From Elsinoe ampelina (taxonomy: Eukaryota): 64,000 bases of DNA. The stretch lies in the NCBI GenBank assembly GCA_010093995.1, contig ML992501.1, forward strand, positions 640,227 to 704,226. Reading direction: 5' to 3'. How positions within the stretch are numbered: the first letter of the stretch is position 1; every line of letters begins with the position of its first letter. The position numbers and the translations under genes were made by a program. Shown piece after piece: positions 25,359 to 62,994 of this stretch. The notes below the pieces were generated by a model that was not told the DNA's origin, searched no databases, and was given only the letters and a program-made list of their open reading frames with translations.

Positions 25359-25599
25359 TAGATACCATATCATGCACATACGTAGTAATGAGAAATGACC
25401 GAACCCTCATGCAACCTCCCGAACCCAGATCGTCATGATCGACCAAAAGTTGGAGAAATTGGAGATCCCTCTGCCGTTCAACCACTCTATCAACCACCCT
25501 CGACCCTCATCCCTCGCCCATCCCTCGATCTCCTATCTCCTCCCTCATCCCTATCTACCCACCATCCTACCGTCAACCACCCAATCACCCTCAGCAATC

Positions 25600-26523
25600 A
25601 TGACCACCACAACAATCACCCTCGACTCCATCGCCTACCACACAACCCTGCACCTCCCCACCCCCTCCTCCCTAGCCCCCCACCCCCCCACCGCCCCCCT
25701 CATCACCCTCTCCCACGCCCTCATGGCCTCTCCAGCAATGTGGTCCCCCCTCCTCCCCCCCCTCCTATCCGCAGGCTACCGCGTCCTAACCTACGCCCAC
25801 CCAGGGCACTCCCCCACCGGGCCCCCTCCCACCTCCACGTCCACCTTCATCCACTTCGACACGCTCACCTCCCACCTCGCGAGCATCATCCGCCACCACA
25901 ACGCGACCTGCTTCGCGCCCGCGCGCGCCGACCCCGCGGCGTGGCCCGACGTCAACGCCGCGACGCTGGACGACCAGGACGTCTTCGCGCTGATCGGGTG
26001 TTCCATGGGGGCGGTGCTGGCGCTGCGGTTCGCGCAACTGTGGCCCACCAAGGTCCAGAGGGTGGTGGCGGTGGGGGCGCCGGGGTTGACGTCGCTTCCG
26101 CGGGCGAAAGGGGCGTGGGATGAGCGGGTTGGCATGTTCGAGAGGGATTTGGCAAGGGGGACGGAGGAGTTGGTGGAGCAGACGGTGGGGAGGTGGTTGC
26201 CTGGTGATGAGGAACGGAGTGTGAGAGCGAGGGAGCTGGCGAGGGGGATGACGAGGGGGTGTGGGCTGGAGGGGTATAAGGCTTGTGTTGGGGGGATTAG
26301 GGCGTATGATTATACTGAGGAGCTGGGGAGGGTGAGGGCGAGGACGTTGGTGGTGGTGGGGAGCAGGGATGGGGCGGTCGGGGAGAGGGGGGTGAATGAG
26401 GATGTGGCGAGGAGGACGGGGGGAAGGTTCGTTTGGTTGGAGGGGGCGGGGCATTTGCCGCCGATTCATATGCCGGAGGAGTTTGGGAGGTTGGTGGTGG
26501 AGTTTTTGGAAGAGGAGGGGTAG
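25600..26523 (+). CDS. Alpha/beta hydrolase (3-oxoadipate enol-lactonase-like)
   Basis: SHAL oxyanion region, HPGHS, nucleophile elbow GCSMG, GSRD acid, GAGHLP catalytic His. Confidence 0.85.
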   Translation: MTTTTITLDSIAYHTTLHLPTPSSLAPHPPTAPLITLSHALMASPAMWSPLLPPLLSAGYRVLTYAHPGHSPTGPPPTSTSTFIHFDTLTSHLASIIRHHNATCFAPARADPAAWPDVNAATLDDQDVFALIGCSMGAVLALRFAQLWPTKVQRVVAVGAPGLTSLPRAKGAWDERVGMFERDLARGTEELVEQTVGRWLPGDEERSVRARELARGMTRGCGLEGYKACVGGIRAYDYTEELGRVRARTLVVVGSRDGAVGERGVNEDVARRTGGRFVWLEGAGHLPPIHMPEEFGRLVVEFLEEEG

Positions 26524-26592
26524 GGGATGGAAGACGAGATGGAGTGGGAGAAACGGGCTGGGAAGATGGAAAAGGGGTATATGGCCGTAATG

Positions 26593-28906
26593 CTACATGC
26601 GTCTGAAAGTGTTGCCACTTGCACTCCGGCGAGCTCCTCGAGATTGGTGCCGACCGGAATCTGCTTCATTGAGATCTTCTGCCCGCGGCCGCTGTTTCTT
26701 CTGAGGCCGCGAGGGGGCAAAGGTGACTTGCTTCTCGCCAACCACGCCGCCACCGGTGCGATTTTGCCGGGGGTTTGACTTGTGGGAGAGGTCGGAGGCA
26801 AGGGCGCCAAAGGACTGGTCCCTTCGTCGGGGTTGTGGCTTGCTATTAGACGAGCTGACCAGCATCTTCGGTCCGGCTTGTGGTGGTCCTCGTCTCTTGC
26901 CTGCTTTTCCGTAAGAGGAAGCCGAAATGCGATTTCGATCGTCGCCCTCTTCATCCTGTCCTCTCCTCTTCCTCTGCCGCGAAATGGCTGCCTCATCCTC
27001 ATCTTGCTGATCACTTTCCGAATCTGAAGAATCCAAGCCTCTCCGCTCCTCCAACTCTTCTTGCTCTGCTGCCGTGAGACCTCGCTTCTTGACCTGTCGA
27101 TCTGTCCCATTAGGCACTGAAGATGGATTGAGCATAGCGAACTCCCGCGATGACTCATCAATCTCGAAATCTTCGTTCTGGAACAGACCCGAGAAACGCG
27201 GATCGACCAGCGTCTTTTCCGTGACCTCTTCGTCGGCGTCATCTGCCATTCTGGTGTCTTCATCTCCATTCGCCTCAGTCTTTGGCTCATCACCGCCCTG
27301 TCGTAGTACCCTCCTAGCCTTCCGTCGCTCATTTGCCTCGTCCCTGGCAAGCAACTTCTCCGCGAACTTCCTGTTGACCTTGACTTTAACAGCCTTGGAC
27401 CCACGAATCCTGCTCTCCCTTTCCTTGGCAATCTTCTCTTGAATGCTCTTCTCCCGCTCCTGCTCGAACAGTAGTGGATTACTGATCAGCTTGGCTTGTT
27501 CGTATAGCTTCTGTGCAACAAAATATCCATGCATATATGGACGCAACAAAGAAGTCTGGCCGACCAAGTGGTCCATGTTAAGCTCGCGTAGCTGCTGCAT
27601 AGACAAGAACTTGTAGTTGTCGTAGACTGTCCCAGAAGTTCCAAAGCCATTATTCTTGTATGCACTCGGGTCGTCCGCATCCTCTGCCATCTCCTCCACC
27701 AAGTTGTCCAGGAATGCGCACCATCGTGGTGCAGGACCAAGCTGTGGAACGAGGAAAGAATGCTGTTGTCGCCCCTCGTTTGCAGTAAGAAACATACCAG
27801 TGTTTGGCACCCATTCGACATGATTCAAGTCAACAGCTGGTTCTACCGAAGTCCAAGCGTCGCCTGTTTCGGCATCCCAGATCTTGATGTTCCTCTTGTC
27901 AGCCGACATGACCTTGTCGCTCACATGTGCGGAGTCTAGGAAGCGCAGGTTCTGGATAGGCTCATCGTAGCCTTGCTCCTTTTGTAGTAGCGGTACTGGT
28001 GATCGTAGGTCGTAAATACTGACCAGACCTGTGGAAGTGCCTGCTGCCAGCCTCAATCCAGATGAGTGGAATTCTAATGCTGAAATCTCTGGACGTAGAG
28101 CGTTGTCCAGTGAGTAATGTTGTGGTTTGGCCAAGGTCGCTACACGACTCTTGCTTCTCGGATCCCAGAACTCTACGGTACCCAGCGAGGTTCCGAAGGC
28201 GAGCATGTTATGTGAATTCTCCGCCACTGCCGCAGCATTGACGGCTCCGGTGTTGATACCTCCCTGTAGCGAGCCAGCGCCGACAGTCTCCGTGTCATCG
28301 CCACCAACGTCGACCTCGTAGCCTTTCATAAATCTGCCTAGCTCAAGATTGAGCCTGAAGACTTCACCATTACCGTTCTCGTTGACACCGACAGCCGGTA
28401 CGAGAGCCTCGGCAGACTTGTTGACGTAGACCAGGTCCCGGCCGTAGCGAGGTATCCGGACAGCATAGTGAAGATTTCCCTGGCCTTGAAATTCCAGGAA
28501 CCGATCCGATTGAAGGTGCAGTGATTTTGTATAGTCGCTAGATAATAAGACGAATTTTTGATTAAGCGAATTTGTGTGGCGTGCGAACGACAGTGATAGG
28601 TGTGGCAAATAGTGCACATGGATTTGTGGCTTATATGTGCCTGCCAGACATTAATACCTGTTATATAGTTGCTTGCAATGTATATTTACCAGTTGACATC
28701 AACCAGTCGCCATCTTCACTGACCCTCACGCATGAACTCGCCTCCTCAAATTCAAAGTCCTGCAACAACTCCACTCGATTTGCGTACTCGGGATCCTTCT
28801 TCAAACTTCGCTTCCGCTTTCGAGCCAGCCATTCCGGTAAGGGCCGCGCAGTCGAAGAGCCGGCGATGGTATAGACCGGCACTGAGTCGGAACTCGTGAG
28901 CTTCAT
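26593..28906 (-). CDS. ENP2: Ribosome biogenesis protein Enp2/NOL10 (WD40 + NUC153), one intron ~28641-28689
   Basis: VYTIAGSSTARPLPEWL, RVELLQDFEFEEAS, spliced MSTG/TYKPQIH, LGPAPRWCAFLDNLVEEM, DPRFSGLFQNEDFEIDE. Confidence 0.95.
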
Positions 28907-28990
28907 CTGCTTCAGATGGTGGCGTAATTGTGAGAAGGCTCAACTTGTGAAATTCTTCGAATCTTTCTTCGCGACGATTATTAGACTTTT

Positions 28991-29254: not shown

Positions 29255-29283
29255 TATAGCACGGCGAATATCGGGAAATCATC

Positions 29284-32200
29284 ATGGCCAATGATAGGCC
29301 AAACGTCGGTGGTGCTCCATCAAACCCACATTCGAACAGTCAAAACCAACCGCCACCACCATCTGGGCCAGGCATTCAGAAGGCAACAACAGCACCAATC
29401 CATGCATCAACTGTCCAGCCACAATTCGGGCAGGCTAGTCCGCTCAGAAACCCTCTGAAGCCTCAGCCTAATATCTTCAAGCCGAATCCCAAGCGACCCG
29501 AGCATCATAGACCCAATCCTCCTGTCTTCTACAGACCTGGCCAAAAGCCTCTCGCTCCTGCACAAACCTTTCCGCAGCAGGCACCGTCATCGAAACCTCA
29601 GCAGCCGTCGTTCGGCCCATCTTCTAGGGAAGGATTCTATCTACCAGGCAAGAAGCGACAGGAAGTACCGGGAGCAATCGCGAGCACAGCAATCTCGGCA
29701 GACTTCTTCGAGATATCGAGGCCGGCTAATGCGCCAGCGAGGACGATTGTTCCAGCCACAAAACCGACTTTCTCGTCGCTGGGTCCAAAAACCAATTTCT
29801 CTCCCTTTAAACCTGTGGGACAACGGAGCAGTCCAATCGTAATCGATGATGATGATGACGGGTTCAACCCGGATGCTGCGTTCAAGGATGACAAGTTTGG
29901 AGCACTCGATCCATACATGTACGTTGATCCGAGCAAAGCGGGCGAAGACATCAAGGCCTTACTCGAAGGAGCCTTTGATGATGACGAGGACCGGCCAAAG
30001 ACTAGACTGCGAAATCGTGCCAGAAAGCCGGCACCTGACAAGCCAAAGAAGAAGACCCTGGCTGATAAGCTCGCCAATCTTGACGTCAAAGATAGCTCGT
30101 CGGGAGACTCGGAGGCAAAGGAGGACGAAGGTGACGATGAAGAAGAGGATGGTACTGTTGAAGGCATGGCAGTGAAGCTTCTACCACATCAAGTCGATGG
30201 AGTTTCCTGGATGCTCGACAAGGAGATCGGAGAGCGAAAGAAGAATGGAGTACTCCCGAAGGGTGGTATACTGGCAGATGACATGGGCCTTGGAAAGACG
30301 ATACAGTCCGTTACATTGATTTTGACAAATCCGCGGCCGCCACTAGATGCAAAACCGCCCGAGGGTACAAAACGGAAGATGCCAGGAAAAGAAGTCGGGA
30401 AAGGCACGCTGGTGATCGCTCCGCTTGCTCTCATCAAACAGTGGGAGGCAGAGATCAAAACCAGAGTCTCGCCTTCCCACGCACTCAGAGTCTTGGTTCA
30501 TCATGGCTCAAATCGGACCAAATCCCATCTCGAGCTTAAGAAGTACGATGTGGTTATCACAACATACCAGATCATCGCATCGGAGCATGCCGGCTCCTCA
30601 GATCACGACGAAGGTATCAAAGTTGGCTGCTTCGGGGTCCACTGGTACCGCATCATCTTGGATGAAGCACACAGTATCAAAAACCGAAGCGCAAAGTCGA
30701 CACAAGCTTGCTGCGCTCTGAAAAGCTGGTATAGATGGTGTTTGACAGGCACGCCCATGCAGAACAATCTGGATGAGCTGCAGAGTCTCATCCACTTCCT
30801 CCGAATCAAGCCCTACAACGAGCTGTCGCATTGGAAGCAGCAAATTACTGCTCCAATGAAGAATGGTAAGGGTCAATTTGCTATCAAGCGTGTTCAGTAC
30901 TTCTTGAAGGCTTTCATGAAGCGACGCACAAAGGACATCTTAAAGCAAGAGGGAGCCCTGAATTTCGGGGGAAAGAAGGATGTGGATGGAAAGAAATCTC
31001 AAGGCATGCAGATCGTGAAGCGCGAGGTACAATCCGTCATCTGCGATCTGGACGACTATGAGCGAGAGTTCTACGACAAGCTGGCACAGCGCGCAAACGA
31101 CCGACTGCAAGACATGATGGGTGGCGAAAAGACTGATTACATCGGAGCGCTCGTGCTGCTGCTTCGTCTGCGCCAAGCATGCAACCATCCTCAATTGATC
31201 AAGTCAGCCATGGCAAAGGACAAAGATGCACTGGCGACTGCTGGCATAGGAGGGTCGCAGTCACCAACCAAGGCTTCGGCGAAAGACGATGTCGATGATC
31301 TAGCGGATCTGCTCGGCGGTCTGGAAGTAAAGACAAAGACATGCGACGTGTGTCAAGTCAAGCTTGATCCCAAGCAGGCCGAGAATGGCTCTGTCCGTTG
31401 TGAAGACTGCGAAGCCGATCTGAGCTTGACAGAGGCCAGACAGAAGAAGACAGTTTCACGCGGTGGAGGCAAGAAAGGTAAGCAGCCTGTCGCCAAACGT
31501 CGGCAACCACGCAAAGTCATCGAAGACAGCGATGACGAGGACGAAGAAGGCGAGGGAGACTGGCTAGTATCTCCTGGGTCACAGCACCAGAACCTGGGCA
31601 AGGCAGGAGGCACTGACGACGAGGATGCCGAAGGCGGCGGCGACACTCTTGGCTCGATCGACTCGAACACAGACTCGGAAGACAGCGACGACGAAGTCCG
31701 CGTCCGCAAACCCGGACGTCGCTCCACCCCCCGGACCTCGACCCATTCAACCTCGTCCGACGGATCCTCCGGCCATCCCACGCGCCGCCTCACCTTCAGC
31801 TCCGACTCGTACCCCTCGACCAAAATCCGCCATCTCTTCCGCATCCTCACCACCGAAACCCCCAACCACAAAGTCATCGTCTTCTCCCAATTCACCACCA
31901 TGCTCGACCTCATCCAACCCCACCTCCAACACGCCCGCATCCCCTTCGTCCGCTACGACGGCTCCCTCGCCAACCCCATCCGCGAAGCCGCCCTTCACAG
32001 CCTCCGCACCGACCCCTCCGTGCGCGTCCTCCTCTGCAGTCTAAAATGCGGCTCCCTCGGCCTCAACCTCACCGCCGCGTCCCGCGTCGTGATCGTGGAA
32101 CCCTTCTGGAACCCTTTCGTTGAAGAACAGGCCATCGATCGCGTGCATCGTCTCAACCAGACTGTGGATGTGAAGGTGTATAAATTGACGGTCAAGGAGA

Positions 32201-32544
32201 GTGTGGAGGAGCGGATCCTCGAGTTGCAGGATAAGAAGAGGGAGTTGGCGAAGGCGGCGATTGAGGGGGGCAAGACGGTGGGGAAGTTGAGTATGAGGGA
32301 TTTGTTGGGGTTGTTTGGGGGGCAGTTTGATCAGGTTGGGACGGAGGAGGGGGCGGGGGTGGGCGCGGATGGGAAGGCGGCGGGGAAGGGGTTGTTGGAG
32401 GGGGTTGCGGGGAGGGGGCCGGAGAGGGGGACGTTGGTGGTGCAGAACCAGGGGCAGGGGCAGAGGCAGGGGGTGTCGGATGTGAGGAGGCAGGAGAAGG
32501 GTGGGAGGGGAAGGGTGGAGGACCCGGTCTTTGGGAGGCGATAA
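29284..32544 (+). CDS. SNF2-family helicase/ATPase (Rad5/16-Uls1-TTF2-like group)
   Basis: GGILADDMGLGKT, IILDEAH, CLTGTP, LLRLRQACNHP, reduced CxxC..CxxC, VFSQF, GLNLTAA, QAIDRVHR. Confidence 0.95.
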   Translation: MANDRPNVGGAPSNPHSNSQNQPPPPSGPGIQKATTAPIHASTVQPQFGQASPLRNPLKPQPNIFKPNPKRPEHHRPNPPVFYRPGQKPLAPAQTFPQQAPSSKPQQPSFGPSSREGFYLPGKKRQEVPGAIASTAISADFFEISRPANAPARTIVPATKPTFSSLGPKTNFSPFKPVGQRSSPIVIDDDDDGFNPDAAFKDDKFGALDPYMYVDPSKAGEDIKALLEGAFDDDEDRPKTRLRNRARKPAPDKPKKKTLADKLANLDVKDSSSGDSEAKEDEGDDEEEDGTVEGMAVKLLPHQVDGVSWMLDKEIGERKKNGVLPKGGILADDMGLGKTIQSVTLILTNPRPPLDAKPPEGTKRKMPGKEVGKGTLVIAPLALIKQWEAEIKTRVSPSHALRVLVHHGSNRTKSHLELKKYDVVITTYQIIASEHAGSSDHDEGIKVGCFGVHWYRIILDEAHSIKNRSAKSTQACCALKSWYRWCLTGTPMQNNLDELQSLIHFLRIKPYNELSHWKQQITAPMKNGKGQFAIKRVQYFLKAFMKRRTKDILKQEGALNFGGKKDVDGKKSQGMQIVKREVQSVICDLDDYEREFYDKLAQRANDRLQDMMGGEKTDYIGALVLLLRLRQACNHPQLIKSAMAKDKDALATAGIGGSQSPTKASAKDDVDDLADLLGGLEVKTKTCDVCQVKLDPKQAENGSVRCEDCEADLSLTEARQKKTVSRGGGKKGKQPVAKRRQPRKVIEDSDDEDEEGEGDWLVSPGSQHQNLGKAGGTDDEDAEGGGDTLGSIDSNTDSEDSDDEVRVRKPGRRSTPRTSTHSTSSDGSSGHPTRRLTFSSDSYPSTKIRHLFRILTTETPNHKVIVFSQFTTMLDLIQPHLQHARIPFVRYDGSLANPIREAALHSLRTDPSVRVLLCSLKCGSLGLNLTAASRVVIVEPFWNPFVEEQAIDRVHRLNQTVDVKVYKLTVKESVEERILELQDKKRELAKAAIEGGKTVGKLSMRDLLGLFGGQFDQVGTEEGAGVGADGKAAGKGLLEGVAGRGPERGTLVVQNQGQGQRQGVSDVRRQEKGGRGRVEDPVFGRR

Positions 32545-32819
32545 ATGATGATAAAGTTTTGGGATAGGCGTTTTTGAATCGATGCATGTGTTCCGTCAGT
32601 CCTTTGTCCTCTTTGTGCATGTCGTTCGCGCGACATCAAATGGAATTTGCTAGTTTGTTTGATTTGCTGGAGTGGCGAATCACACGTTGACAGGGTCAGT
32701 GACGGTCATACATCACATTTGATGACAAATGAACATGTTCGTCCGATGCATTCGGGCCTGCTCTATCGACTCGCGGGCTCAGAATCGCCGATATCCTTCG
32801 TCTTTGTACAGAAAATTGC

Positions 32820-37100: not shown

Positions 37101-39156
37101 TCCATTCCGAGGCAGATCTACTCCCACGATCCCTCCCGGTCTGGAGGGCCTGGGACAGGTACCTACCGGTCAGTCCGCGGCTCAGACAAGCCAGACATCT
37201 GGTGTCGTGAAGCCAGCAATACCAGCTGTGCTGCAAGCTAGGAGTGCTGCAGGATCACGTAAACCATCCATTGCATCGCTGTCTTCCCGACCCGGCACGC
37301 CAGGCATCAGATCAGCCACTGAGGAGAAGAAAGTTGTAGCTGCGGAACAAAAGGAGCCGGCTCAAGCTTCCGTAGAGAAGACCGCGATACCAGATACTCC
37401 AAAGCCGGTGGTGCCGAGCACAGTCCCGACAATTGCCACGCCAAAGAAGACGCTTCCGCCGACCAAGACCGCTGAAGCACAAGCGACGCAGAAGCCGGAG
37501 GTGGCAACGCAGTCTTCCAAGACAATAGTGAAGGACCAAGCGACCAAAATCTCCGATGTCACTCCAGTAGCGACTCCAACAAAATCGAAACTGCCAGAAA
37601 CTCCTGTGAGCAAGGGCAAACAGGACCCGAAGCAGTCTACGCCCAGCACTTCTCTAGATAGTGCCAAACGGAAACATCCTGGTAAGATAGACATCACTGT
37701 GGCTGTGACCCAGCAGGAGGAGGCCATCAAACCAAGCGCTGTGCCGTCAGCCGCAAAAGCCACGATTCCGGGCTCTCCGTTGGTATCATCAAGACCTGCA
37801 AGTCCTGGTTTTGCTGAAGTGGCGGGCAAGAAGAAAGTCAACACGATCAGAATTGTCAACACTCCTCAGCCTGCTCCGATTATCAGCACTCCATTCGCTG
37901 CTGCAGTTGCCAAATTACCTTCTCGAAACCCCAGCATTGCTTCTGCCAATCCGCCAGGCACTCCTTCCAGTGAACATATCAGCGACACTGTCTCCTTGAC
38001 TTCAGCAAGCATCTCTCGGCCACACTCGCCGACAGGCTCAGTGCCTGGTGGCATTGTGGGATCGGCACCAGTATCGAGATCAGCTGCTGCAAAGAAGCGT
38101 GAGCGTCAACGCAGACAGCAGGAGCAAGAACAGAAGGTGGCAGAGGCGGATACAGTCGCCGATGAGCCGATCCAAGAGGCGATCACGAGTCACAAGAGAT
38201 CGACCAAGAGCAAAGCTACTGCGTCCAAACCCAAGCCAAAGCCAAAGGCTGAAGCTGCTGTACCTATTGCGGCGACTGATGCACCGTCACCACAGGTGGA
38301 TGCTCCAGCGGCTGACGCTCCACAAGCCAACCGCGGCATAAAGCAGTCCACCAAACCAAAGCAAGTCGAGACAAGCGCTCCGCCAGTAGACGACAACAGT
38401 CCCGCAAGTCTCATCCGCGAGGCCCAAAAAGTCCTCCCTCCCTTCATCGCCAAAGCCCTCGACGGCTTCTTCTGCACAGTCGCCCAGAACAACGCCGTCT
38501 ACAAACCCACCCAACCCATCACAGCCGCAGACATCGACACGGAGCGCACCTTCCTCCGCCACCCACCCGCTCCCTTCGAGCACAAGACCCTCAACCGCCT
38601 CCTCAAAGACGGCACCCCCTTCCGCTACGGCGGCGGCGACGACCGCATCTGGTCCCAAGGCTGCGTCACGCCCGACGGCGCCCACCTGCGCTACCTCGAA
38701 TCCGAGCTCGAAGAACGCTACTGGCAACTCGAGCAAGACTTTGCCCACATCCCGCAAAGCTGGCGGTACAAGCCCGACCGCACCCGCAAATGGAACGGGG
38801 TGAACATCTACGACGAACTCCCCTACGTCGACCTCGAGACGCTACGGGCAGAGCTGGAGAACGGCGGCGGCCGCAGACGGGAGGCCAACGCCATGGAGAA
38901 GGCCGTCGAGGAAGGGAGCAAGAAGGGGAGTTTCCTCGTGGGCAACGCGGAGGCGTACATCAATGAGTTTGTGATGCCCGTGGTGCGGGATCGGATGAGT
39001 AGACCGGGACAAGAGGGGAAGACGGAAGGCGAGGAGAAGCGCTCGTTGGAGGAGATTGAGAAGGCGTTGGTGCTGGCGAGGAAGGTGGCGGAGCAGAAGG
39101 AGGCGGAGTTGAGGAAGGTTATCAAGAAGAATAGGAAGGTTGTGGGGTTGGTTTAG
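34123..39156 (+). CDS. NOT4: CCR4-NOT E3 ubiquitin ligase Not4 (RING, RRM, C3H1); long isoform, with a short isoform ending at 36540
   Basis: CPLCVEEFD..FRPCPCGYQ/ICQFC, LRVVQKNLVYV, YFGQYGKI, AQFGTTKYC; short introns ~34243-34297, ~34410-34460, ~34827-34877; long intron 36215 or 36221 to 37024 joins in frame to the 37207-39156 ORF. Confidence 0.9.
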
Positions 39157-40032
39157 TGGGGGGGGGGGGGGGGGAGCTGTACTTGTAGTGATGGGAAGGG
39201 GATGGGGTACTGGCTTCTTGTACATATATTTGGAGCTGGACTTGGACGATAGGGACGATAGTCTGGAAGATTGCCGGTCATCGCGGCCTCCTTCACCCAT
39301 GTACCAGTGTCCCTTACTGGGATTTTCTCCCGCTACTGACGTCCTACAAAGGCCTCCCGTGTGTGTTCTTTCCCTCTGGCACAAACCTCCTGTCATTTCG
39401 TGATGGCTGCGTCTTCGTGGCGTCGCGTTGCGTCCGGACACGATCCGCTCGTCTGCATCTCCTGCCAATTATCTCGAGTACTCCCCCTTCTTCCGTACTG
39501 GACGCAGATCTCGAGGCAGCGAGGGAGCAATTTCCTGATCAACGCCCTGGGACCGGTGGGGTTTCGTGCCGTTGCTCAAGGCCGGCGGCGCGGAGGGACA
39601 GCACGGGTACCGGCAGGGAAAGGATATCGGTCTTCACCGTCGTGTCGAGCGTGATGGCCAGTCTTGGGGGCCAGGATCGCATGCTGGCGTATGGGGATGT
39701 GGCGAGTCCGTACGTGGCGAGTAAGGCGGTGCTGAATGCATTCGTGCGTAGGGTGGGGTTGGAGGAGGAGTGGTTGGGTTGCGTTTGTTTTGCATCCGGG
39801 ACTGGTGGTGACAGATAGACTGTGGACCCTGAGGCTGTGGGGGTTATTCTAGCGGAAGAGTCGGTGGGGGGGGGGACGTTGGAGCAGGTGGATGTGGCGG
39901 CGGAAGGGAGATGGGTGGGATCTTTGTGGGGTGGGATGGTGTGGAGAAGTCTTGGTAGGAGATAGGGAAGGAGAAGAGGGCGGTGAGAGGGCAATGATGG
40001 AGATTTGGTAGACTGGTATACATGCGAAGTGT

Positions 40033-49129: not shown

Positions 49130-50341
49130 ATGCGCTTCATCTCGCTTGCCCTGCTCCTTGTGAGCTCATACCTCGTGGCCGCAACATCCACCCACACATC
49201 CAATTGGGCTGTCCTTGTCTCTACCTCACGCTTCTGGTTCAACTACCGCCATCTCGCCAATGTCCTCTCCCTTTACCGCACCGTCAAACGCCTGGGTATT
49301 CCGGACAGTCAGATTATCTTGATGCTGCCGGATGACATGGCATGTAATCCCCGCAACACTTTTCCCGGCGCGGTTTTCAACGACAAGTCGCGCAATCTCG
49401 ACCTTTACGACGACAAGGAGGCGGAAGGTATCGGCGGCATAGAGGTCGACTACCGCGGACATGAAGTCACAGTCGAGAACTTCATTCGTTTGCTGACCGA
49501 TCGCTGGCCAGCTGACTACCCAAGGAGCAAGAGGCTGATGACGGACGAGAGGAGCAATATCTTGATCTACATGACTGGACACGGCGGGAACGAGTTCTTG
49601 AAGTTCCAAGACGCCGAGGAGATCAGCAGCTTCGATCTGGCGGACGCATTTGAGCAGATGTGGGAGAAGAAGAGATACAATGAGTTGCTGTTTATGATCG
49701 ACACTTGCCAGGCCAACACAATGTACGGCGCATTCTATACCCCGAACATTGTGGCTACCGGAAGCAGCGCATTACACCAGAGCAGCTACAGTCACCATGC
49801 GGATCAGGATGTCGGAGTGGCAGTCATTGACCGATGGACGTATTACAACCTGGAGTTTCTTGAGACTTTGGTCACGAGCACGAGCAGTAATGTCACCATC
49901 GGGGAGCTCTTCGACAGCTACGATCCAGTCAAGGTTCACAGCGATGCAGGAATTAGGTATGATCTCTTCAAGGGAGGAGAGCCGGAGGCAAGAAAGAGGA
50001 GGGTAGTCGATTTCTTCGGCAATGTACAAGGAGTCGAGGTTGACGGAGAAAAATCGAAAGATTCGCTGGCCGATCTAAAGAAGGATCTCGATGCATTGAG
50101 GAGGCTGGTGGAGAGGCAGCAGGAGGCTCTCAAGGACTTTCAGGATCCTGCCCCTGCGCCAGTCAAGGAAGATGCTCCAGCAAGCGAGTCGAACGTGGCC
50201 AAAACGGACGGTATAAAGGGATATCTCAAGGGCGCATTGACAACAGATGGCAAGTCAGAGTGGACTGCGCAAGCTCGAGGCATGGGCATTCTCGCAGGTG
50301 TGGTCACTCTGTGGGCGGCTGCCAGTATGCTGGATCGCTGA
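49130..50341 (+). CDS. GPI8: GPI-anchor transamidase catalytic subunit (C13 peptidase)
   Basis: Signal peptide, HTSNWAVLVSTSRFWFNYRH, YMTGHGG, FMIDTCQA, C-terminal hydrophobic segment. Confidence 0.97.
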   Translation: MRFISLALLLVSSYLVAATSTHTSNWAVLVSTSRFWFNYRHLANVLSLYRTVKRLGIPDSQIILMLPDDMACNPRNTFPGAVFNDKSRNLDLYDDKEAEGIGGIEVDYRGHEVTVENFIRLLTDRWPADYPRSKRLMTDERSNILIYMTGHGGNEFLKFQDAEEISSFDLADAFEQMWEKKRYNELLFMIDTCQANTMYGAFYTPNIVATGSSALHQSSYSHHADQDVGVAVIDRWTYYNLEFLETLVTSTSSNVTIGELFDSYDPVKVHSDAGIRYDLFKGGEPEARKRRVVDFFGNVQGVEVDGEKSKDSLADLKKDLDALRRLVERQQEALKDFQDPAPAPVKEDAPASESNVAKTDGIKGYLKGALTTDGKSEWTAQARGMGILAGVVTLWAAASMLDR

Positions 50342-50360
50342 AGTGTGCATTCGACAATTA

Positions 50361-51448
50361 TCAACCCGACTTGAATGTCTTCATCGCCCGGTCTACGCCG
50401 CTCAGCCAACGCATGACCTTCTGGGTACCGTACGGTAGCACTGAGAGCCACTCGATGCAGTCTGCGTAGAAGGGCAATGCGATCACTCCGCTCTGCCCAG
50501 CGTCGATCTTGGCCACGATCGCTTGAGCAAGATCGATTGGCTCTACGACCGGTCCCATGAAGCTGCTTGGTGTCTGCACACCTTTGAACAGTGGCGTTGA
50601 CAGCTGACCTGGCTTGACCAGTATCGTCTTGATCTGATCATGACCTGCGTCAGCAAGCTCGGAGCGCAGCGAAGTATGCATGGCGATCAGACCAGCTTTG
50701 GCAGCCGTGTAGTCCGACAATTGCGATGCACCAAGATCACCCAAGACCGACGCAACAGTCACCACGGTCCCGCTCTTCCTCTCAATCATCCGGGGCAAGA
50801 AGGCACGCAGCATGTAGAAATGCGACAAGAGATTGACCCGAAAGTTCTTCTCCAGCGCCTTGGACTCAACCTCCAACAACGTCTTCCCATTAACAATCCC
50901 GGCATTGTTGATGAGCACAGTCGGCGGTCCCAGCTATGATCATCAGCCACACTCCCTCCACAATCACAATAGAATTGAAATCCACTACGTACATCCTTCT
51001 CCACCCGTGCCCTGACCTCTCTGACCGCCTCTTCGTCCCCCACATCCACCCTATAAAACCTCACTCCTCCATCCTTCTCCCCCTCCCCGCCCTCGTAGAA
51101 CGGCCTCACATCCAGCACCGCAACCCCCACCCCTCGCATCGCGTACGTATCCGCTATCACTCTCCCCAACCCACTGCTCCCCCCTGTTATGAGCACGACT
51201 TCTTCCTCCCAGTCCACCTCGCGGGGTGAGCCCCATGCGATGCGCTGGTCGATGCGCCAGAGGAAGTAGAGGAGGAGGGAGAAGAGGAAGAAGCCGAGGG
51301 AAAAGGTGTCGAGCGGGGACCAGGTGTAGCCGAGAGCGAGGCGGGAGAGGGTGAGTGACAGGGCGAGGAAGGGGAGTTGGCGCGATTCGCGGGCGAGGAA
51401 GTCGATGCTTAGGAGAGGGGGGTAGGTTGGGCGGCGGGTGGGGGGCAT
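50361..51448 (-). CDS. Membrane-anchored short-chain dehydrogenase/reductase (Tda5/RDH-like), one intron ~50935-50990
   Basis: ITGGSSGLG, INNAG, catalytic YTAAK; N-terminal hydrophobic segments. Confidence 0.9.
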
Positions 51449-51647
51449 TGTGGTTGTTGAGGGAGAGGGAGGGAGGAGGTGGTCGTGAGGGTGGAGATAT
51501 TGGTTGCTTCGGTCTGAAGTTGGAAAAAGGTGGGGCATTCTGAGCATCGGTTTGGGATGCTGCATTTCGGCTGGGAAGGGACTTCGTGCTAGCGACCATT
51601 GCATTAATTATTCTTTTGTGTGAGCTTGAGGTGTAGTGGACGGGCAC

Positions 51648-52358
51648 ATGTCGGCGAGCGTCGATACAATACTGCAGCATGAGAAAGTACCAGATCCGAC
51701 GATAGTCACGCCACGACTGAGGCTGCGACCTCCTCGGCCTGATGATCTGGATTTCATGCACTGGCTGCACTTGTCACAGGAGGCGACGAGATGGACGTGA
51801 GTACTCTTCTTGTCGACCAGTCTCTGCCGGATATGGTCGGGATACAATTGAAGCCATGCAAACATTCTTCGTGCCTATTCCGATGCCTCTTTCACGCGCG
51901 TACTTTGGACACCTCCACAAGTCTGAACATCACACAGGCCCTCAATCCGCTCCAAATCCCTCCCAGACACAGAGAAGCGTCTAGCAATGATGCTATCCGA
52001 ACACCCGCCCCTAGTCCACATGCTGGTAGTCGAGCTCCTCCCGACCACCGACCGTCCTGAGCCCTTCCCTATAGGCACCGCTGGTTCCTTCCGCCCCGCC
52101 GAGCTGGGATATGGCTTCCATCAGGACTACTTTGGCAAAGGCTACGGGACCGAAGCGGCGCTGGCTTATTGTCATTGGTTCAGAGCACAGTACCCTGGCG
52201 AAAGGATGATTGGGAAGACGTTTCCCGAGAATTTGGCGAGTGTGAGGGTGTTGGAGAAGTGTGGGTTTACTGCAGCGAGGGAAGGAGAGAGGGAGGATTG
52301 GCCGTTGGATCAAGGGGGAGGGGGGACTTGGATTGATAGGACTGGTGATGTGAAGTGA
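51648..52358 (+). CDS. GNAT acetyltransferase (RimJ/RimL-like), intron 51797-51937
   Basis: TPRLRLRP in exon 1; GTGAGT..CAG intron joins in frame to ELGYGF..YFGKGYGTEA..ENLASVRVLEKCGF. Confidence 0.88.
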
Positions 52359-52717
52359 GGTGTGTTACGAGTGCTGTAGATGCAATGTCGGCTTCGTTGC
52401 TGCACAGGTGGTCGAAGCAACGGTGACAGGGCAATCAGCTTGATATGCGGCATTCTCTACGAAGTGATATGACCTGGTATTGTCGAGGACGACAATGCAT
52501 CGGGGGAAACAAGGTGGCTGGCAATGGGTGAGTCGATCTCTATTGTAGTCTTTCACCTGGCATGTGAAAGGCGGCCCGGTATATATCTCGTTTCACCTTC
52601 TTCCACTCTTCTTCTCCTTCACCTCACACGGACTCACACACTCTTTCACTCACTTCAAATCTCTCTATCGACACGCTGGGTCAATCATCTTCGTCGCGGA
52701 GATCGCGCAGTACAGCC

Positions 52718-54241: not shown

Positions 54242-54895
54242 TCACGGCCACGGCCCCCTCCCTCAAGCTCACCACGCCCGCCTCCGCATCACCATTCGTT
54301 GCTTTCAACCATGCATTTCGATACCACCAGCACTTTTCTTTTCATTCCACATTTCAAGCTCGACGTTGAGAGCAGCACTTTGCGACATACCCCCACGACC
54401 GGCCTGATCATCACCATCAGCCAACCGTAACTGCGTACAAGAGTTGACGCCTAGACGAAAGGCCTCTCGACTTGTCTGGATTGCCTTCAATGCTTTTACT
54501 GTTTCTGCTTCTTTGCTTTTCTCGCTTTCTCATCTTAACTCCCACTCGCGCACAAAATACAAAAACAAGCTGTTTTTCGGACGGACACACTCAATTCACA
54601 AAGCGCAGAGAGGATGGATGATCAAAAGTACCATAGTACACTGCCTCTCCGGAGGGCCAATAGCTAAAAGTTCTTGCTTTTAATACAATACATGCATTCG
54701 TCACTACCTACCCTTGTCTTCAGGTGCTTTCGTATGCATAAATCCTCAGTCATGGACTGCCTGAACCGGCGTCCACTACACGGACCGCGTTACTCCAATC
54801 CAGCAGACCCCCTCCCCCTCCCCATCCCGCACCGCAACCCGCCCCCACCCCCCCTTCCTTCCCACTCTCACCCACCGCCCCTCAGCAACACCACC

Positions 54896-56314
54896 CTACC
54901 TCGCCGCCGACCTCGCAAGATACACCCCGGCCGCCTCCCTCACACCTTCAGTACCCCACACGCCCCCCTCGCCTCCTTTCCGCATACTCTTCGGCAACGG
55001 GGCATCCTCGCCGTGACCCCTCCCTCCTTCGGCCAGGAAAATCTCCAGGTCGCGCTTCTGGCTGCCCACCCAGCGCCGCACGAAACGCACCGGGTCCTCG
55101 CTGAGCGAGGTCAGGAATTTGTGTTTCTGCGTTGCGCGCGAAATGGCTTGCACAATGACCGCGATGTCGGCGTCCATGTCCTGGATCTCGCGCAGTTTCG
55201 CGATGTGGGTCGTGTCGGTGGCGAGTTTCTTGATGGCGGCGTCGAGCGGGGAGGGGAGCGGGACGAGCACGTCGTAGATTGTTTGTGCCGAGGGGAGGGA
55301 GGTGGCAGGGGAGAGGTAGTCTTTGTCGAGACGGACGGTGTAGGGGAGCTGGATGGGGGGCAGCTCCGTGAGGTGTCCTTGGGTGAGGATTATTTCGCGG
55401 AGTTGAGGGAAGGTGAGGACTTCGAGGCCGAAGATGCTGCGGAGGGAGTCGTCGCAGATGAAGCGCCGGTGTTCGTCGTCTTCTTGGAGTTGGTGGTGGC
55501 GGACGTAGTCCCAGATTGCGCCGAGGACGGTGGCGGTGTCGGCTTCGGTGAGGCAGAGGAGGGAGGCGAGGGGTGCGGAGAGTTTGTAGCGGGGTGGTTG
55601 GTGGTCGCGGAAGAGGGAGATTGTGATGTTGATTTCTTCGTCGCCTTTGCGGGTGAATTCGAGGGTGTCGAAGCTGGTCTCGGAGGATGAGGGCAGACGG
55701 GGCTTGTTGGGGTCGCTAGGGTGAGATGGTCGTTTCCATTCTATGGTTGATACGCCGTCTGATTGTAATGAAGCTGGTCGGTCAAAGTCGATCTTGATAG
55801 CGCGGAAAAAGTCTGAGAAGCGCGTCCGCGAGATCTTGTCCTTTGTCTTTGCCTCTGAGCTGTCATCCTCCATCGCATCGTCTTTCGTCTCCTCCTCAGT
55901 CGGGTTGTCCAGTAATCTGCCTTCAATCTTTACTCGATACGTCGCTTGGCTGTTGTCCGCCAGATCGAATGTGTCGTTGTCTTTGCTCTCCTCCATGATT
56001 TGCCACGGTTGCCCCTCGGCAGTGTTGCTGATCCACACGCGCAAGGTTCCTTCCGACTCTGTTCTCGATCGATACGGGTCTGTGAGGTCTAAACGCTTCT
56101 GCATCATTGTCGCATCCAGTCTTCGTTCCATCTCTCGCAGCTTCTTGTAGCGCTCGACACCATCGCCTATCGTACATTGCGCGACATCGTCGGGGATGTT
56201 CCTATCTGAGGGTCGTTGTAATATCCGCTGCTGTGTCTCTCGCTCTTTTCGCTTCACGGCTTCTTCTTGCTGCAGCCTTTGTCGAAGTGCTGCCTCGTTC
56301 GGTGGTTGCGCCAT
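54896..56314 (-). CDS. SNF12: SWI/SNF-RSC complex subunit (Snf12/Rsc6/Ssr3; SWIB domain)
   Basis: PSDRNIPD, ERRLDATMMQKRLD, LRVWISNT, IEGRLL, IWDYVRHHQLQE, SQKRDLE. Confidence 0.92.
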   Translation of the reverse strand: MAQPPNEAALRQRLQQEEAVKRKERETQQRILQRPSDRNIPDDVAQCTIGDGVERYKKLREMERRLDATMMQKRLDLTDPYRSRTESEGTLRVWISNTAEGQPWQIMEESKDNDTFDLADNSQATYRVKIEGRLLDNPTEEETKDDAMEDDSSEAKTKDKISRTRFSDFFRAIKIDFDRPASLQSDGVSTIEWKRPSHPSDPNKPRLPSSSETSFDTLEFTRKGDEEINITISLFRDHQPPRYKLSAPLASLLCLTEADTATVLGAIWDYVRHHQLQEDDEHRRFICDDSLRSIFGLEVLTFPQLREIILTQGHLTELPPIQLPYTVRLDKDYLSPATSLPSAQTIYDVLVPLPSPLDAAIKKLATDTTHIAKLREIQDMDADIAVIVQAISRATQKHKFLTSLSEDPVRFVRRWVGSQKRDLEIFLAEGGRGHGEDAPLPKSMRKGGEGGVWGTEGVREAAGVYLARSAAR

Positions 56315-58217: not shown

Positions 58218-58861
58218 CACCGTTCCATGGTACCACAAGGTCTAGTACACCTTCTCTTAATGTATAAAGCGAATCAATGTTCGCGTCTGTCAATCTGCTG
58301 CAGGTAATGTAATTCCATTATCTCCTATATCTAATGATGCTCCCGTGGCTACCACGAAGCCAAAGGACGACAGTGGCAACATGATATTCCACCGGCCTGC
58401 CAACACCGATTATACAGTGATAGTATTTTTCGATAATTGTCTATCACGGCGGTTTGATGTTGATCTAATCATTCTGAATTGCTTCGATGATTGTTTTTGC
58501 TGTAGAGGATCTGCGGCCACAATAGGCTGGCATGTCGCTATGGGCAACTTTTCAGCATCACTGTCACATGTCAGAACCACGACAATGAGCTCGTGACGTG
58601 TCACACTGCCAATGGTTAGGTAAAATTGCACGTAAAATCCTGCTTGCAAGCTCGTCGATACGCACACTCGATATCAGAATTTTGCAGAGCTTCAAGCTTC
58701 ATCCAGCTACCAGCGAGCACCTACCAGATACACAAGAACCACCACAATTCAACACTCTCAAACGCATCCAAGAACTACTGACTACCCTCCAGATCACCCT
58801 GACTTACCAACTGCTCGATCGCTGCTTGCTGCGCTCGCTACTGACTTTGCTTGCTTTAAAC

Positions 58862-59811
58862 ATGTCGCACACCAGTGAGACTAACAGCACAACCAGAGAC
58901 AATGTATCCTTTCCTACCAGCATAGACGACCATCACGACGAGCTCATGGCATCTCTTTCGGCCGACACAATCATATTCGGCACTCGCCGTATTCGCACTC
59001 CTGCCACTCTCCCTGCCTTTGCGACCGTCCGTGGCACCCTCACTTCTCACCACGCCACGCCATCCTTCCCGCATGCTGCCGCAACGACCCCATACCAGCT
59101 CGATACTGCCAGAGACCTGTCCGCCGTCTCACCCGAGCTTCACTCAGAGCTCACAGCAAGCCTGGCAGCCGACACAATCGTGCTTGCCACCCCTAGTAGG
59201 CGGCAGCAAGGTACTACCAGACTGGCTTACCATATATGACCTCGGCTAACAATGGCACAGCTCCCAGCATCCCGGCGGCACCCCCCCTCGCCTCTCCTCT
59301 GCGCCCAGCGCACACCTGGCTGGAGGGCGTCCGCCAATACTCCGCCCCCTGCCACCGCCAGGTGGAGGGCCACCTCCGGGCGCACGAGGAGGGGCAGGTC
59401 ACAGCCCACCAATTCGTCGCCCGCATCTTCCTCTCTCTGCGGCACCACGGGCTCCTCCGCCTGTTCCCGGCCTTCGCCAACAACTTCCTCCCCCCGGAGT
59501 GGAGGTCGAGCGGCGAGCTTCACCGCATCCTCTCCGCGGGGCGCCGTCGTGGCCCTCCGCCGGGGGAACTCGTCGCTCGTCTCCCTCCGGGCGTTGGGCA
59601 CCGTCTCTTGGCCCAACGCGCCGTGGCTGGTCCGGCGGTGTTTCGTACACCGCGCTTCGGGCCGTACGGTGGTGGGGGACCGGGGCGGGTGGGGGGCGAT
59701 GAGGCGGAGCTGGAGTGGGTGCTGAACTGGGTGGCACCGGTGCCGGTCGTCGATCCGGGGGCTGTGAGGCGGGTGTGGTGGGATATGCGGCGGCGCTTGT
59801 TGGGGTTTTGA
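58862..59811 (+). CDS. Hypothetical protein with internal repeat and a PAH-like helical domain, intron 59211-59260
   Basis: GTACTA..GCTAAC..CAG intron fuses ORFs 58598-59239 and 59236-59811 in frame. Confidence 0.65.
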
Positions 59812-59874
59812 GGGGGGCGAGGGAGTGGGGAGAGGTATGAGGGAGAAGGGGTGGTAGTTCTTGTATTTGTACGA

Positions 59875-62206
59875 CTACAAGTGGGGGACCTTGGCGCTGG
59901 CGAGAGCGAGGGAGAGGATGCTGAACAACCCCTCGCCCAAGATCAGACCGCTGGCGAGGATGATGACGGGTGTCTCACTTCTTTTCTTGTATCCACACCA
60001 GTACCAGCTCAAGAGACCGCCAATCGTCCTCGCCAGGGTAAAGGAAGGGGTATTATACATGCCTGCGACAGATCAGCATTGGCTTTTTTCGACTTACGAC
60101 ACGACATCACTCACCGACTGCGACTGCAATACCGCCAGGCACAAAGTCCTTCCAGAACTTCTCTTTCCCATATATCCGCATCACAGTAAAGACGGTAAAG
60201 ATCACCGCAGCACCAGCAGACCATTCCGCGGCCTTCTCCGGCAGTCCCTGACCAGTGACCAATCTGGCAGTGAAGACCCATACATATCCCGTCGGCACTT
60301 GGAACATTCCTCCCGGCACTTCATACACACTCGTGTACAGCTTATACACAGCGGCACTTACGACAGCACCAAATGCACTTCCCAATATCTGGCCATAGAA
60401 CTGAGCCTTCGGACTCGCACCAAGCAGATGTCCCGTCTTCAAATCCTGCAGCAGATCACCAGCCTGGAGAGCCCCAGACTCACTAATGGCACCAGCGATG
60501 AGGTTGATGATAACAGCATTCTTTGACCCACGAGGAGTGACCAGAGCAAAGGCAAGCTGGACAAGCTTACTTATTCCCGACACTGGATTCAAATCTGTTT
60601 CGCCGAGAGCGCGCACCCCCATGATGGAGAGGAGGAGAGCCAGAAGTAATGCGAGGAGGGTGAGAGGAAGCGGTATCAACCCAGCAAAGGTGTAATGGAC
60701 GGCGAGGACACAGACCAGTAAAGAGAGTACCAGACCAACAGAAGTCACACGGGCTCCAATGAGGTGTTCAGGAGGCGCATCAGGTTCTTCATCGTCGACA
60801 GGTTTTTTCACAGAGGTCCTGGTTTCATCGGAGGAAGAGTCAAAAGGTAACGAAGAGTAATCCTTGAGGCGGTCTGGGCGAACAATGCGGTGGAGGTCTT
60901 GACGAAATGTACCACGGCGATAACTGTCACGAATAGAAGGACCATGTTGCCGGACGAGGTTGATCGTCGGCCGAAGAACCAGCCATCCAAGACTGATGAT
61001 TGCATCCGCGAGCATGATTGCCAGACTGACCCATACAATCCATCCTTTGCTGCCTTTCTCCCAATCGCTCACAGGTCCGGGAGCCCAGCCTTTGTGCTTC
61101 GCCAGTGGTGATAAGATACCCCATCCAATGACCGCACCGAGCAGCATGTTCAGTGTCGTGGCGGGACCCATGATGATGCCTTGTCCAATGTATGCAGGAG
61201 AAGGATTTAGCGTCCATAACCAGGTGTTAGCCAGTTTCATGCCCAGAATAGGAATATCACGAATCTGCGGAACAAAGTAGCTGAACACCGTGTACCCAGC
61301 CGAACCTCCAAACGACCCGACCAGCAGCTTGATCTGCATCTTCCAGTCCTTGAACTTCTCTTGCGCGCCTACAGCCTCCTCATCAGACACCCTCCCCTGA
61401 CCCTCCCGCCCTTGCTCCCTCTCCGCCAACAGACTCTCCCCCTCCTCGCTTGTCCCATCTCCTCTTACCCCTTTCCTTCCTCCATCCCGCTCATCCATAT
61501 CGATCACCCCCTTCTCCCCCGCCCCATGCAACACGGAAATCATCAACGCCGTCGCCGTCCCCGAAGGAAACTTCAGTTTCTCCCTAATAATCACCTCCGT
61601 CCTAAGCGGCACCGCGAACAGCACCCCAAAGAAACACAACCCCGTCGCCCAAACCATCAACTTCCCCAACCCCAACTCCAACCCCGTCTTCCCATCCGGC
61701 GTCTCCTCCTCTTTAAGCAAAAACTCCAGCGCCGGTATCACGCCCACGAAACCACACCCCAACGGCATCGTCCCCACCGAGCTCGCGACGGTCTGTATCA
61801 GCACGTTCTCCACCGGCGTGAAGGGGAAGCTGAGTAGTGGCGCCACGGCTTTGAAGTATGCGAAACCGAGGAGCGCGCTGGGCATTGCCATGCCGGATAT
61901 CCAGCCTGTTTGGAGGCCGAAGTAGGTGTTGGAGAAGGCGATTATGATGCCGATTGCGAGGCCGACGAGGAGGGAGCGGAGGGTGAAGTTTTGGGGTTGG
62001 GAGGCGCGGGAGGCGAGGACGGGGGAGGGGGAGGAGGGGGAGGAGGAGGATGAGAGGGTGCCGATTTGTGATCGGTGTGAGGGGGTGCTCGGGCTTGATG
62101 AGGAGGGGGAGGATGAGGAGGGGGAGGAAGATGAGGAGGGGGAGGAGGGCGATGAGGAGGATGAGGATGACGAGGGGGAGGAGGGGCCGCCCCGGTCTGG
62201 TGCCAT
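59875..62206 (-). CDS. OPT-superfamily oligopeptide transporter (YSL-like clade), intron ~60063-60112
   Basis: NTYFGLQTGW, FTPVENV, KFPSGTATA, LGETDLNP, DLKTGHL, ASGLILGEG; poly-Ser/Pro N-terminus. Confidence 0.93.
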
Positions 62207-62994
62207 GGTGGTATGGGGCTTGCTGGGGGAGAAGGTTTGGAGGGGATATGAGGTTGCCAGGTTGAAGGATCAACCCATTGCTGCTATGGGGAGGGTATAG
62301 GCTAGCGCGGTGGAATGAGATGTCGTGATTGACGCATTGACGCCCGTGTTTGCACTGTTTGCATTAGCTGGTAGGAATACCCGAGCACCACAGACAGACC
62401 CACGACACTGTGCTATGGATACACTCCATCGCGATGCATGGCGCTCTCATACCCAATATTGAGCAGTGATCGATGATTGAGTTGGTTATGTGCTTGCTTA
62501 CACAATACTGTGCGTATGCCTTATCTCTGTTACTGTTGATCCCGAACGCTGTGGTACCTGCGCTGGAAATCACACCACAATCTCTTCAAATCCGACGGCG
62601 AGCGGGACGACTCTGAAATGGGTCACAGACGGTGAAGGCGAGACGATGACAAGACTCGTATGGGCGCGGCTCATTAGAGTATAGTTCCTCAGCAGGCTCA
62701 GCGGCTCATTTCCAAGTGGGATCAAAGTTCGCGACATCGTTGACGCTAGCCTGCTATCATTATGATTGCCAGTCCAGGCTCGCTAAGATCAATGATAATG
62801 CCACAACTATTCACGACCGTTCACAACGTGCCAGCCTGGTCGTTTCAATGGTAAGATTCCAGCAATTAACTCGGTCAATCCATGCGAGGGCCCGATACTG
62901 CGTATATATGGTCTACATGTATCGACATGTGAATGTTGTTCTTCACTACTACTTCATAGCACACTGCCATAGATCCGCCGTATTCCCAGCCGTC

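Follow-up and report, generated by a model that had tools for sequence, protein, structure and literature searches.

About half of the genes in a gene-rich stretch of DNA from the fungus Elsinoe ampelina carry, near one end, a block of ~1 kb that is nearly free of G and then nearly free of C. The stretch, 40 kb long, belongs to a 64-kb window (the whole of the DNA analyzed, 64,000 nucleotides of contig ML992501.1, to which all coordinates below refer) and consists, from 23.9 kb onward, of gene-dense fungal DNA with a GC content of 0.545. The blocks look like the scar of a transcription-linked mutation bias acting on one strand, and not like replication origins, which are an unlikely source; recombination hotspots are the weaker rival.

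Gene models were built from open reading frames, Pfam matches, and five introns supported by RNA, the RNA evidence consisting of the unstranded contigs of sequencing run X3, which is recognized as RNA because its contigs skip these five introns. Pfam identified an alpha/beta hydrolase, an SNF2 helicase, a protein with the NOT4 RRM, a TCP-1/CCT chaperonin (CCT3), a short-chain dehydrogenase (SDR), a SWIB protein (SNF12), and an OPT transporter, in agreement with the seven gene names (hydrolase, SNF2, NOT4, CCT3, SDR, SNF12, and OPT) proposed in a preliminary description of this DNA, as well as a NOL10-type protein, the 30-kDa subunit of complex I, an ataxin-10-domain protein, a DHHC palmitoyltransferase, a C13 peptidase (GPI8-type), and a GNAT acetyltransferase.

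Discrete C-to-G Skew Blocks

Blocks were detected on a profile of GC skew (positive where G exceeds C) calculated in 300-bp windows, to which an antisymmetric filter with a half-width of 300 was applied. The filter placed C-to-G centers at 25960, 32159, 38846, 39584, 45558, 51236, 52152, 55092, 59628, and 61815, and refinement yielded nine block centers, at 25996, 32164, 38846, 45541, 51223, 52131, 55100, 59652, and 61815, with 39584 being an extra, minor feature. The nine switches from C-rich to G-rich DNA listed in the preliminary description are all real, each having been found again to within ~60 bp; the start at 45.0 kb that it gave for one of them is merely a small positive blip (+0.14 at 45000–45299). 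The top filter score was 225, compared with a maximum of 82 in 200 mononucleotide shuffles and of 127 in 200 shuffles of 30-bp chunks. All 10 centers scored above every mononucleotide shuffle, and seven of the 10 above every chunk shuffle.

Strong extrema of the opposite polarity, G to C, were found as well (n = 11), all of them 296–731 bp from some C-to-G center, and thus represent the outer edges of the same blocks. With 10 C-to-G features and no free-standing G-to-C feature (binomial p = 0.002), the earlier statement that the order is always C and then G is accurate for every strong feature. Averaged over the nine blocks, each half measures ~450 bp, and the skew is maximal near ±250–275 bp, crosses zero over ~100 bp, and is back to ~0 by ±475–575 bp from the center. 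GC content peaks at the block center (0.63–0.66), which is also where the density of CpG is highest. The 10 features are spread over 37 kb, two of them being only 0.9 kb apart. A common sequence motif was sought at the block centers, and none was found; likewise, a search for look-alike stretches in the other genomes of the same survey returned none.

Two simple structural origins of the pattern were considered and rejected. An inverted repeat or hairpin would require the left half to match the reverse complement of the right half, but this match beat all 30 shuffles in just three of the nine blocks, where the matches were short and of low complexity. Growth of G runs by slippage was likewise dismissed, given that the run lengths match the geometric expectation, and the G enrichment is therefore independent of sequence context.

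A Bias at the Level of DNA

Fourfold-degenerate sites, analyzed in the eight blocks with a known reading frame, hold the strongest skew of all, ranging from −0.32 to −0.86 in the left halves and from +0.33 to +0.82 in the right halves. In the remainder of the SNF2, SNF12, and OPT genes, the fourfold skew is −0.02, −0.04, and 0.00, respectively, and the GC content of third codon positions (GC3), which is 0.57–0.90 in the blocks, is 0.50–0.62 in the remainder of the same genes. Read on the G-rich strand, the pooled fourfold sites (n = 1007) comprise 704 G, 126 C, 110 T, and 67 A. Thus, A, C, and T are all depleted, A the most, and the depletion of all three non-G bases fits a change of anything to G on one strand. 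The skew extends to sequences that are not translated: it is −0.60 in the intron of the dehydrogenase gene (50934–50992), which is confirmed by spliced RNA contigs, and it reaches ±0.57 to 0.73 in five flanks resembling untranslated regions (UTRs), three of them upstream of a start codon and two downstream of a stop codon. Its presence at fourfold sites, in an intron, and in UTR-like flanks implies a bias operating on DNA rather than selection on proteins, and the blocks are the footprint of this bias, not of protein or codon selection.

These results support the proposal, put forward in the preliminary description, that the blocks are footprints of a strand-asymmetric process. That description had named the vanishing of the skew at fourfold-degenerate sites as the observation that would speak against it, and the skew does not vanish there. 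The shift in synonymous codon choice that it had noticed in CCT3, a highly conserved chaperonin, is borne out by a fourfold skew of −0.41 and then +0.76, and the G-quadruplex potential that it had suspected on both flanks is present in that motifs occur on the G-rich strand of each flank (13 on the + strand and six on the − strand, most of them within the matching G-rich halves).

The bias also reaches the encoded proteins. In the hydrolase, Pro, Thr, Ser, His, and Leu abound in the first half, and Gly, Arg, Glu, and Val in the second. With silent sites in the blocks reaching ~70% of one base on one strand and with protein sequences being rewritten, a local mutational force overrides codon preference and part of the constraint on proteins.

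Attachment to Gene Ends and the Direction of Transcription

In the six long genes that bear a block, the center is located 204–391 bp from the nearest coding end; were the centers placed anywhere in those genes, the probability of all six falling so near an end would be 0.002. The block is found at the 3′ end of four of these genes (SNF2, NOT4, CCT3, and SNF12) and at the 5′ end of the other two (dehydrogenase and OPT). In the short genes, namely, those for the hydrolase and the GNAT acetyltransferase and the gene at 58.7–59.9 kb, the block is the entire gene. The C-then-G pattern is its own reverse complement, so the independence of gene orientation noted in the preliminary description is true only trivially and carries no information; as to their position, the blocks do depend on the genes.

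The direction of transcription is apparent beyond the coding regions. At all six convergent junctions beside a block, the spacer DNA that separates the two stop codons shares the sign of the sense-G side of the block-bearing gene, with skews of +0.73, +0.10, +0.31, and +0.26 next to + genes and of −0.13 and −0.40 next to − genes, and the last 300 coding bases of the partner gene display a faint skew of the same sign as the spacer in five of five cases. Downstream of the NOT4 gene, the G-rich zone is ~1.2 kb long and reaches the stop codon of the convergent gene. These same-sign spacers and partner ends indicate that the G side follows transcription past the coding region, and a point source at the center, be it an origin or a break site, would not be expected to give such an asymmetry along transcription.

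Viewed on the sense strand, C bias at the 5′ end is strong in the hydrolase, dehydrogenase, OPT, and GNAT genes and in the gene at 58.7–59.9 kb, and weak or absent in several block-free genes. G bias at the 3′ end characterizes the SNF2, NOT4, CCT3, SNF12, hydrolase, and GNAT genes and the gene at 58.7–59.9 kb, and continues into the spacers; the last 300 bases of the DHHC, BTB, and ataxin-10-domain genes are slightly C-biased in sense.

Seven of the nine centers lie less than 1 kb from a convergent junction, and six of the seven junctions feature one 3′-end block. A rule of exactly one block per convergent junction is nevertheless not claimed, the association being not significant when calculated per 3′ end: blocks are present at 6 of 14 convergent and at one of four tandem 3′ ends and are thus no more frequent at convergent ones. 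The stop codons of convergent pairs can be as near to each other as 20–70 bp. Those of the GPI8-type and dehydrogenase genes are 20 bp apart (50341–50361), and a single RNA contig covers both genes, so their transcripts must overlap.

Relation to Known Skew Patterns

A bias of the sense strand toward C at the 5′ ends of genes and toward G at their 3′ ends has been described in unicellular fungi, where it affects fourfold sites, UTRs, and amino acid usage (PMC3315797; McLean and Tirosh 2011), and in all these respects the blocks resemble it. The skew there, however, is an averaged trend of small amplitude that spans the entire gene, does not exceed at fourfold sites its strength elsewhere, and shows an inverse correlation with GC content, whereas the pattern described here comes as discrete blocks of ~1 kb in half of the genes, with a fourfold skew of up to 0.86 and a raised GC3. 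Moreover, the two halves adjoin at one end of the long genes, the rest of which is neutral; a whole-gene gradient is not what is seen. We consider the blocks to be an extreme, block-like form of this gene-end skew.

GC skew associated with R-loops was reportedly found by Ginno and colleagues at human CpG-island promoters and at the 3′ ends of human genes, the 3′ skew being linked to termination. The blocks are similar to such islands in that a center rich in GC and CpG is flanked by an excess of G on the outward-running strand, and, judged by composition alone, with CpG density peaking at the center, they would fit a divergent promoter of the CpG-island type. Unlike in human CpG-island promoters, the center is located inside coding sequence, 200–390 bp from a coding end.

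Full-text searches of the literature on Elsinoe, on Dothideomycetes, and on R-loops and antisense transcription in fungi yielded, among the matches listed, no description of such nuclear skew blocks in Elsinoe or other members of the class, nearly all of the matches listed for Dothideomycetes dealing with mitochondrial genomes. We know of no accepted explanation, since 2011, for the weak version of gene-end skew in yeast. The present skew, which is ten times stronger and toggles from gene to gene, makes the cause experimentally approachable. In addition, models of codon usage, dN/dS, and gene prediction in which each genome is taken to have a single composition will go wrong in genomes of this kind.

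Possible Origins of the Blocks

We tentatively favor, with somewhat less than even confidence, the interpretation that the blocks are scars of a strand-asymmetric bias in mutation or repair that follows transcription units and that they represent fungal gene-end skew in an extreme, on-or-off form. Where RNA polymerase II slows down and terminates, the non-template strand would remain unpaired, in R-loops, for instance. Lesions on this unpaired strand, abasic sites among them, would evade repair, and their bypass, by inserting C opposite the lesion, would cause any base to drift to G. In this scheme, the transcript of the gene itself, or a short sense transcript, would terminate in the G half, which matches the tails extending past stop codons. 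The C half would play the same part for an opposed transcript of ~1 kb that has its start or its end in the same chromatin gap at the gene end, and this is the weakest step of the scheme. Given that G-rich RNA would favor R-loops, the bias could become self-reinforcing, which would account for the all-or-nothing nature of the blocks.

A study in yeast provides a precedent for the chemistry: Rev1 and Pol zeta put mostly C opposite abasic sites, and, when RNase H is lost and R-loops are more abundant, T>G changes in a transcribed reporter become more frequent specifically on the unpaired, non-transcribed strand (PMC6063437). Such mutagenesis resembles the blocks in that it predicts a change to G on the exposed strand together with a rise in GC, and a boost by R-loops; it is, however, known only from a reporter gene in repair-deficient laboratory strains and is not known to shape the composition of genomes.

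Several considerations weigh against this transcription-linked interpretation. Nine of the 18 genes have no block. The opposed transcripts demanded by the C halves are pure inference, and the gene's own transcription also crosses the G-poor C half, where a simple drift of the non-template strand to G fails; to rescue the C half, one must additionally assume that the effect occurs mainly in termination zones. Symmetric blocks with a central GC peak are equally well explained by a point source at the center, and the proposed lesion-bypass mechanism has been demonstrated solely on yeast reporter genes. Finally, the GC content of the noncoding parts of the blocks (0.42–0.62) is lower than the block GC3 (0.57–0.90), which a purely mutational model does not predict unless these parts are under constraint or belong to the margins where the blocks fade.

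A more elaborate version, which we regard as rather doubtful, pictures each block as a self-reinforcing skew island in which two opposed transcripts end back to back, C is inserted opposite unrepaired lesions and pushes the unpaired strand of each termination zone toward G, R-loops formed by the G-rich RNA lock the state in, and one gene wins each convergent junction. If this were true, silent-site composition would constitute a million-year record of RNA polymerase II termination and of cryptic antisense RNAs, and the blocks would be a natural case of translesion synthesis rewriting both codon usage and protein composition.

The preliminary description had attributed the switches to fixed replication origins or to free-standing hotspots of recombination or resection. 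Neither fits well with centers that are tied to gene ends (p = 0.002) and have no common motif, with a skew that is gone in ~450 bp, with 10 features in 37 kb, or with directional tails at six of six junctions. Recombination nevertheless has a small but real chance of being responsible, in the form of fixed hotspots of meiotic double-strand breaks, at which GC-biased gene conversion over ~0.5 kb on each side would be combined with strand-specific repair of the resected DNA or heteroduplex. The kilobase-scale GC3 peaks, symmetric around the center, are what this process would produce, and GC at silent sites does peak there. The abundance of the blocks, about one per 4 kb, is near that of meiotic hotspots in yeast. 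Furthermore, hotspots in another Dothideomycete, Zymoseptoria tritici, can be intragenic, 1435 of 2578 being located within exons (PMC5844332). Local GC3 peaks ~1 kb wide, possible also inside genes, are a feature that GC-biased conversion shares with the blocks. The restriction of the OPT imprint to the window and Elsinoe batatas (see below) could reflect the birth and death of a hotspot. However, gene conversion alone gives no asymmetry between G and C on a strand, and a symmetric break site explains neither the directional G tails nor the anchoring at coding ends, nor do the centers share a motif. By our reasoning, the best-known single-strand effects of breaks at the center, namely, loss of C from the 3′ overhang or insertion of C opposite lesions in it, would result in the opposite polarity, and the hydrolase block is common to the whole family. 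The idea of fixed bidirectional origins, with the skew being the G excess of the leading strand, is scarcely credible. The polarity is that of bacterial origins and of human skew jumps, where C likewise precedes G on the + strand, and the two sides are symmetric; yet in bacterial and human skew domains this pattern extends over tens to hundreds of kilobases, whereas here it occupies hundreds of base pairs of coding sequence at gene ends and dies out rather than lasting over a replicon. In addition, the features, two of which are 0.9 kb apart, are far denser than known fungal origins, and the centers are embedded in GC-rich coding sequence, including that of CCT3 and of the SNF2 helicase domain, and lack a motif.

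Collisions of convergent RNA polymerases are an unlikely cause. Stalled polymerases would expose non-template strands, which would lose G, for example, through oxidized guanine, and turn C-rich, the switch marking the point of collision. The closeness of most centers to convergent junctions, the six of seven junctions with one 3′-end block, the short distances between convergent stop codons, and the RNA contig covering both the GPI8-type and dehydrogenase genes are in line with this idea, but the loss of G to T or C leaves the rise in GC unexplained, the most depleted base on the C-rich strand is T rather than G, neither the GNAT block nor the 5′ block of OPT is at a convergent junction, and, counted per 3′ end, convergent genes show no excess over tandem ones. 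Selection on RNA or protein, for instance, for an unstructured C-rich start or for long-range pairing of the halves, is very improbable. The predicted folding of the C halves alone is weak (−0.16 to −0.20 kcal/nt, compared with about −0.30 in four control stretches), and the predicted fold of whole blocks is more stable than that of shuffles in four of four cases, by 1.3 to 4.6 standard deviations. Against selection stand the presence of the skew in hundreds of silent sites, in an intron, and in stretches past stop codons, the occurrence of the same structure at 5′ and 3′ ends and alike on both strands, and the lack of in-register complementarity of the halves beyond what composition gives. 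The predicted folding is probably a consequence of composition and not evidence of function. The four folded blocks were 25460–26600, 31700–32650, 54750–55750, and 61250–62330, for which long-range pairing between the C half and the G half is predicted.

Age of the Blocks among Relatives

The closest public proteins are those of Elsinoe batatas, with BLASTP identities of 78% for the hydrolase, 92% for OPT, and 97% for SNF12, followed by those of E. fawcettii, E. australis, Sphaceloma murrayae, and Myriangium duriaei. As an index, we used the G-versus-C content of codon positions 1 and 2 implied by the amino acids, the gradient being the value of the second half minus that of the first. For the hydrolase, this gradient is 0.91 in the window, 0.90, 0.77, and 0.90 in three full-length Elsinoe/Sphaceloma orthologs, and 0.59 in a partial one; among five distant homologs, it is 0.23–0.37 in four and 0.64 in the fifth. 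The imprint being present in all four Elsinoe/Sphaceloma orthologs, the hydrolase block is old and stable in position. In OPT, the two segments have values of −0.31 and then +0.27 in the window and of −0.18 and then +0.26 in E. batatas. In 13 other fungi, among them E. fawcettii, E. australis, and Sphaceloma, the imprint is absent from the first segment (−0.09 to +0.23), and the second, at +0.06 to +0.17, is lower than in both the window and E. batatas. Protein composition suggests, and only in part establishes, that the OPT block is younger. The composition of the SNF12 protein has an identical pattern across all 15 fungi compared; the SNF12 block is therefore purely synonymous and uninformative with regard to age. 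Polarized amino acid changes were too few (six in the hydrolase and 20 in OPT) and had no clear direction.

In the hydrolase (25870–25940, + strand), an insertion of ~22 residues, HNATCFAPARADPAAWPDVNAA, is located at the GC-rich block center and is found only in the Elsinoe/Sphaceloma orthologs. At the N terminus of OPT (61815–62206, − strand), a Ser/Pro-rich segment comprises 130 residues, compared with 89–122 in 14 other fungi, and the read contigs break within the N-terminal repeat (62009–62060). The DNA of a relative, sequenced in run X14, is colinear with the window over 12 kb in eight pieces, with 1046 letters different. For the contigs of relatives, 1245 differing sites were tabulated.

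Individual Blocks and Neighboring Sequences

Block 1 (C half 25460–25996, G half 25996–26600) covers the entire alpha/beta-hydrolase gene (+ strand, ATG at 25600, stop at 26523), together with ~140 bp of upstream sequence and the spacer of 69 bp that precedes the next gene. Its fourfold skew is −0.70 and then +0.82, with −0.66 in the upstream 160 bp and +0.73 in the spacer. Block 2 (31690–32650), which is C-rich up to 32164 and G-rich thereafter, occupies the 3′ end of the SNF2-family helicase gene (+ strand, stop at 32544), with a fourfold skew of −0.78 and then +0.81, compared with the neutral rest of the gene. Block 3 (38300–39300, center 38846) is at the 3′ end of a long + strand gene that opens with the NOT4-type RRM (stop at 39156), and has a fourfold skew of −0.73 and then +0.33. 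The spacer between this gene and the convergent ataxin-10-domain gene (39157–40032, 876 bp) has an overall skew of +0.31 and includes, at 39584–40032 on the + strand, a noncoding G-rich tail. The spacer opens with a G17 run (39157–39176) adjoining the NOT4-type gene's stop codon. It also contains an open frame (39192–39818, + strand) with a dehydrogenase-like stretch, YVASKAVLNAF, and no Pfam match, which may be the remnant of a decayed gene.

Block 4 (45305–46100, center 45541) lies at the 3′ end of CCT3 (− strand, stop at 45305). Block 5 (50850–51640, center 51223) is at the 5′ end of the short-chain dehydrogenase gene (− strand, ATG at 51448) and includes the skewed intron described above, as well as a 5′ UTR-like part with a skew of +0.57. 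Block 6 (51940–52450, center 52131), smaller than the others, has its center in exon 2 of the GNAT acetyltransferase gene (+ strand, stop at 52358). Block 7 (54700–55800, center 55100) is at the 3′ end of the SNF12/SWIB gene (− strand, stop at 54896), and its C-rich side on the + strand extends through the spacer at 54242–54895 (skew −0.40). Block 8 (58650–59950, center ~59652), weaker and lopsided, lies over a small expressed gene of unassigned family, covered by an RNA contig at 58711–59451. Block 9 (61250–62330, center 61815), at the 5′ end of the OPT transporter gene (− strand, ATG at 62206), has a fourfold skew of −0.86 and then +0.78, and a skew of +0.59 in its 5′ UTR-like part.

Outside the blocks, two further regions of the window are of note. 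Positions 1–23800, adjoining the gene-rich part at ~23.9 kb, are AT-rich (GC 0.33) and contain just two frames of at least 90 amino acids; the dinucleotide indices of this region, TpA/ApT of 1.90 and (CpA + TpG)/(ApC + GpT) of 0.29, are typical of repeat-induced point mutation. At the opposite end, a + strand frame at 63421–63999, which leaves the window and whose strand is strongly C-rich, codes for an extended Thr/Ser repeat (TTSTTTSTTT...) and possibly represents a mucin-like wall protein.

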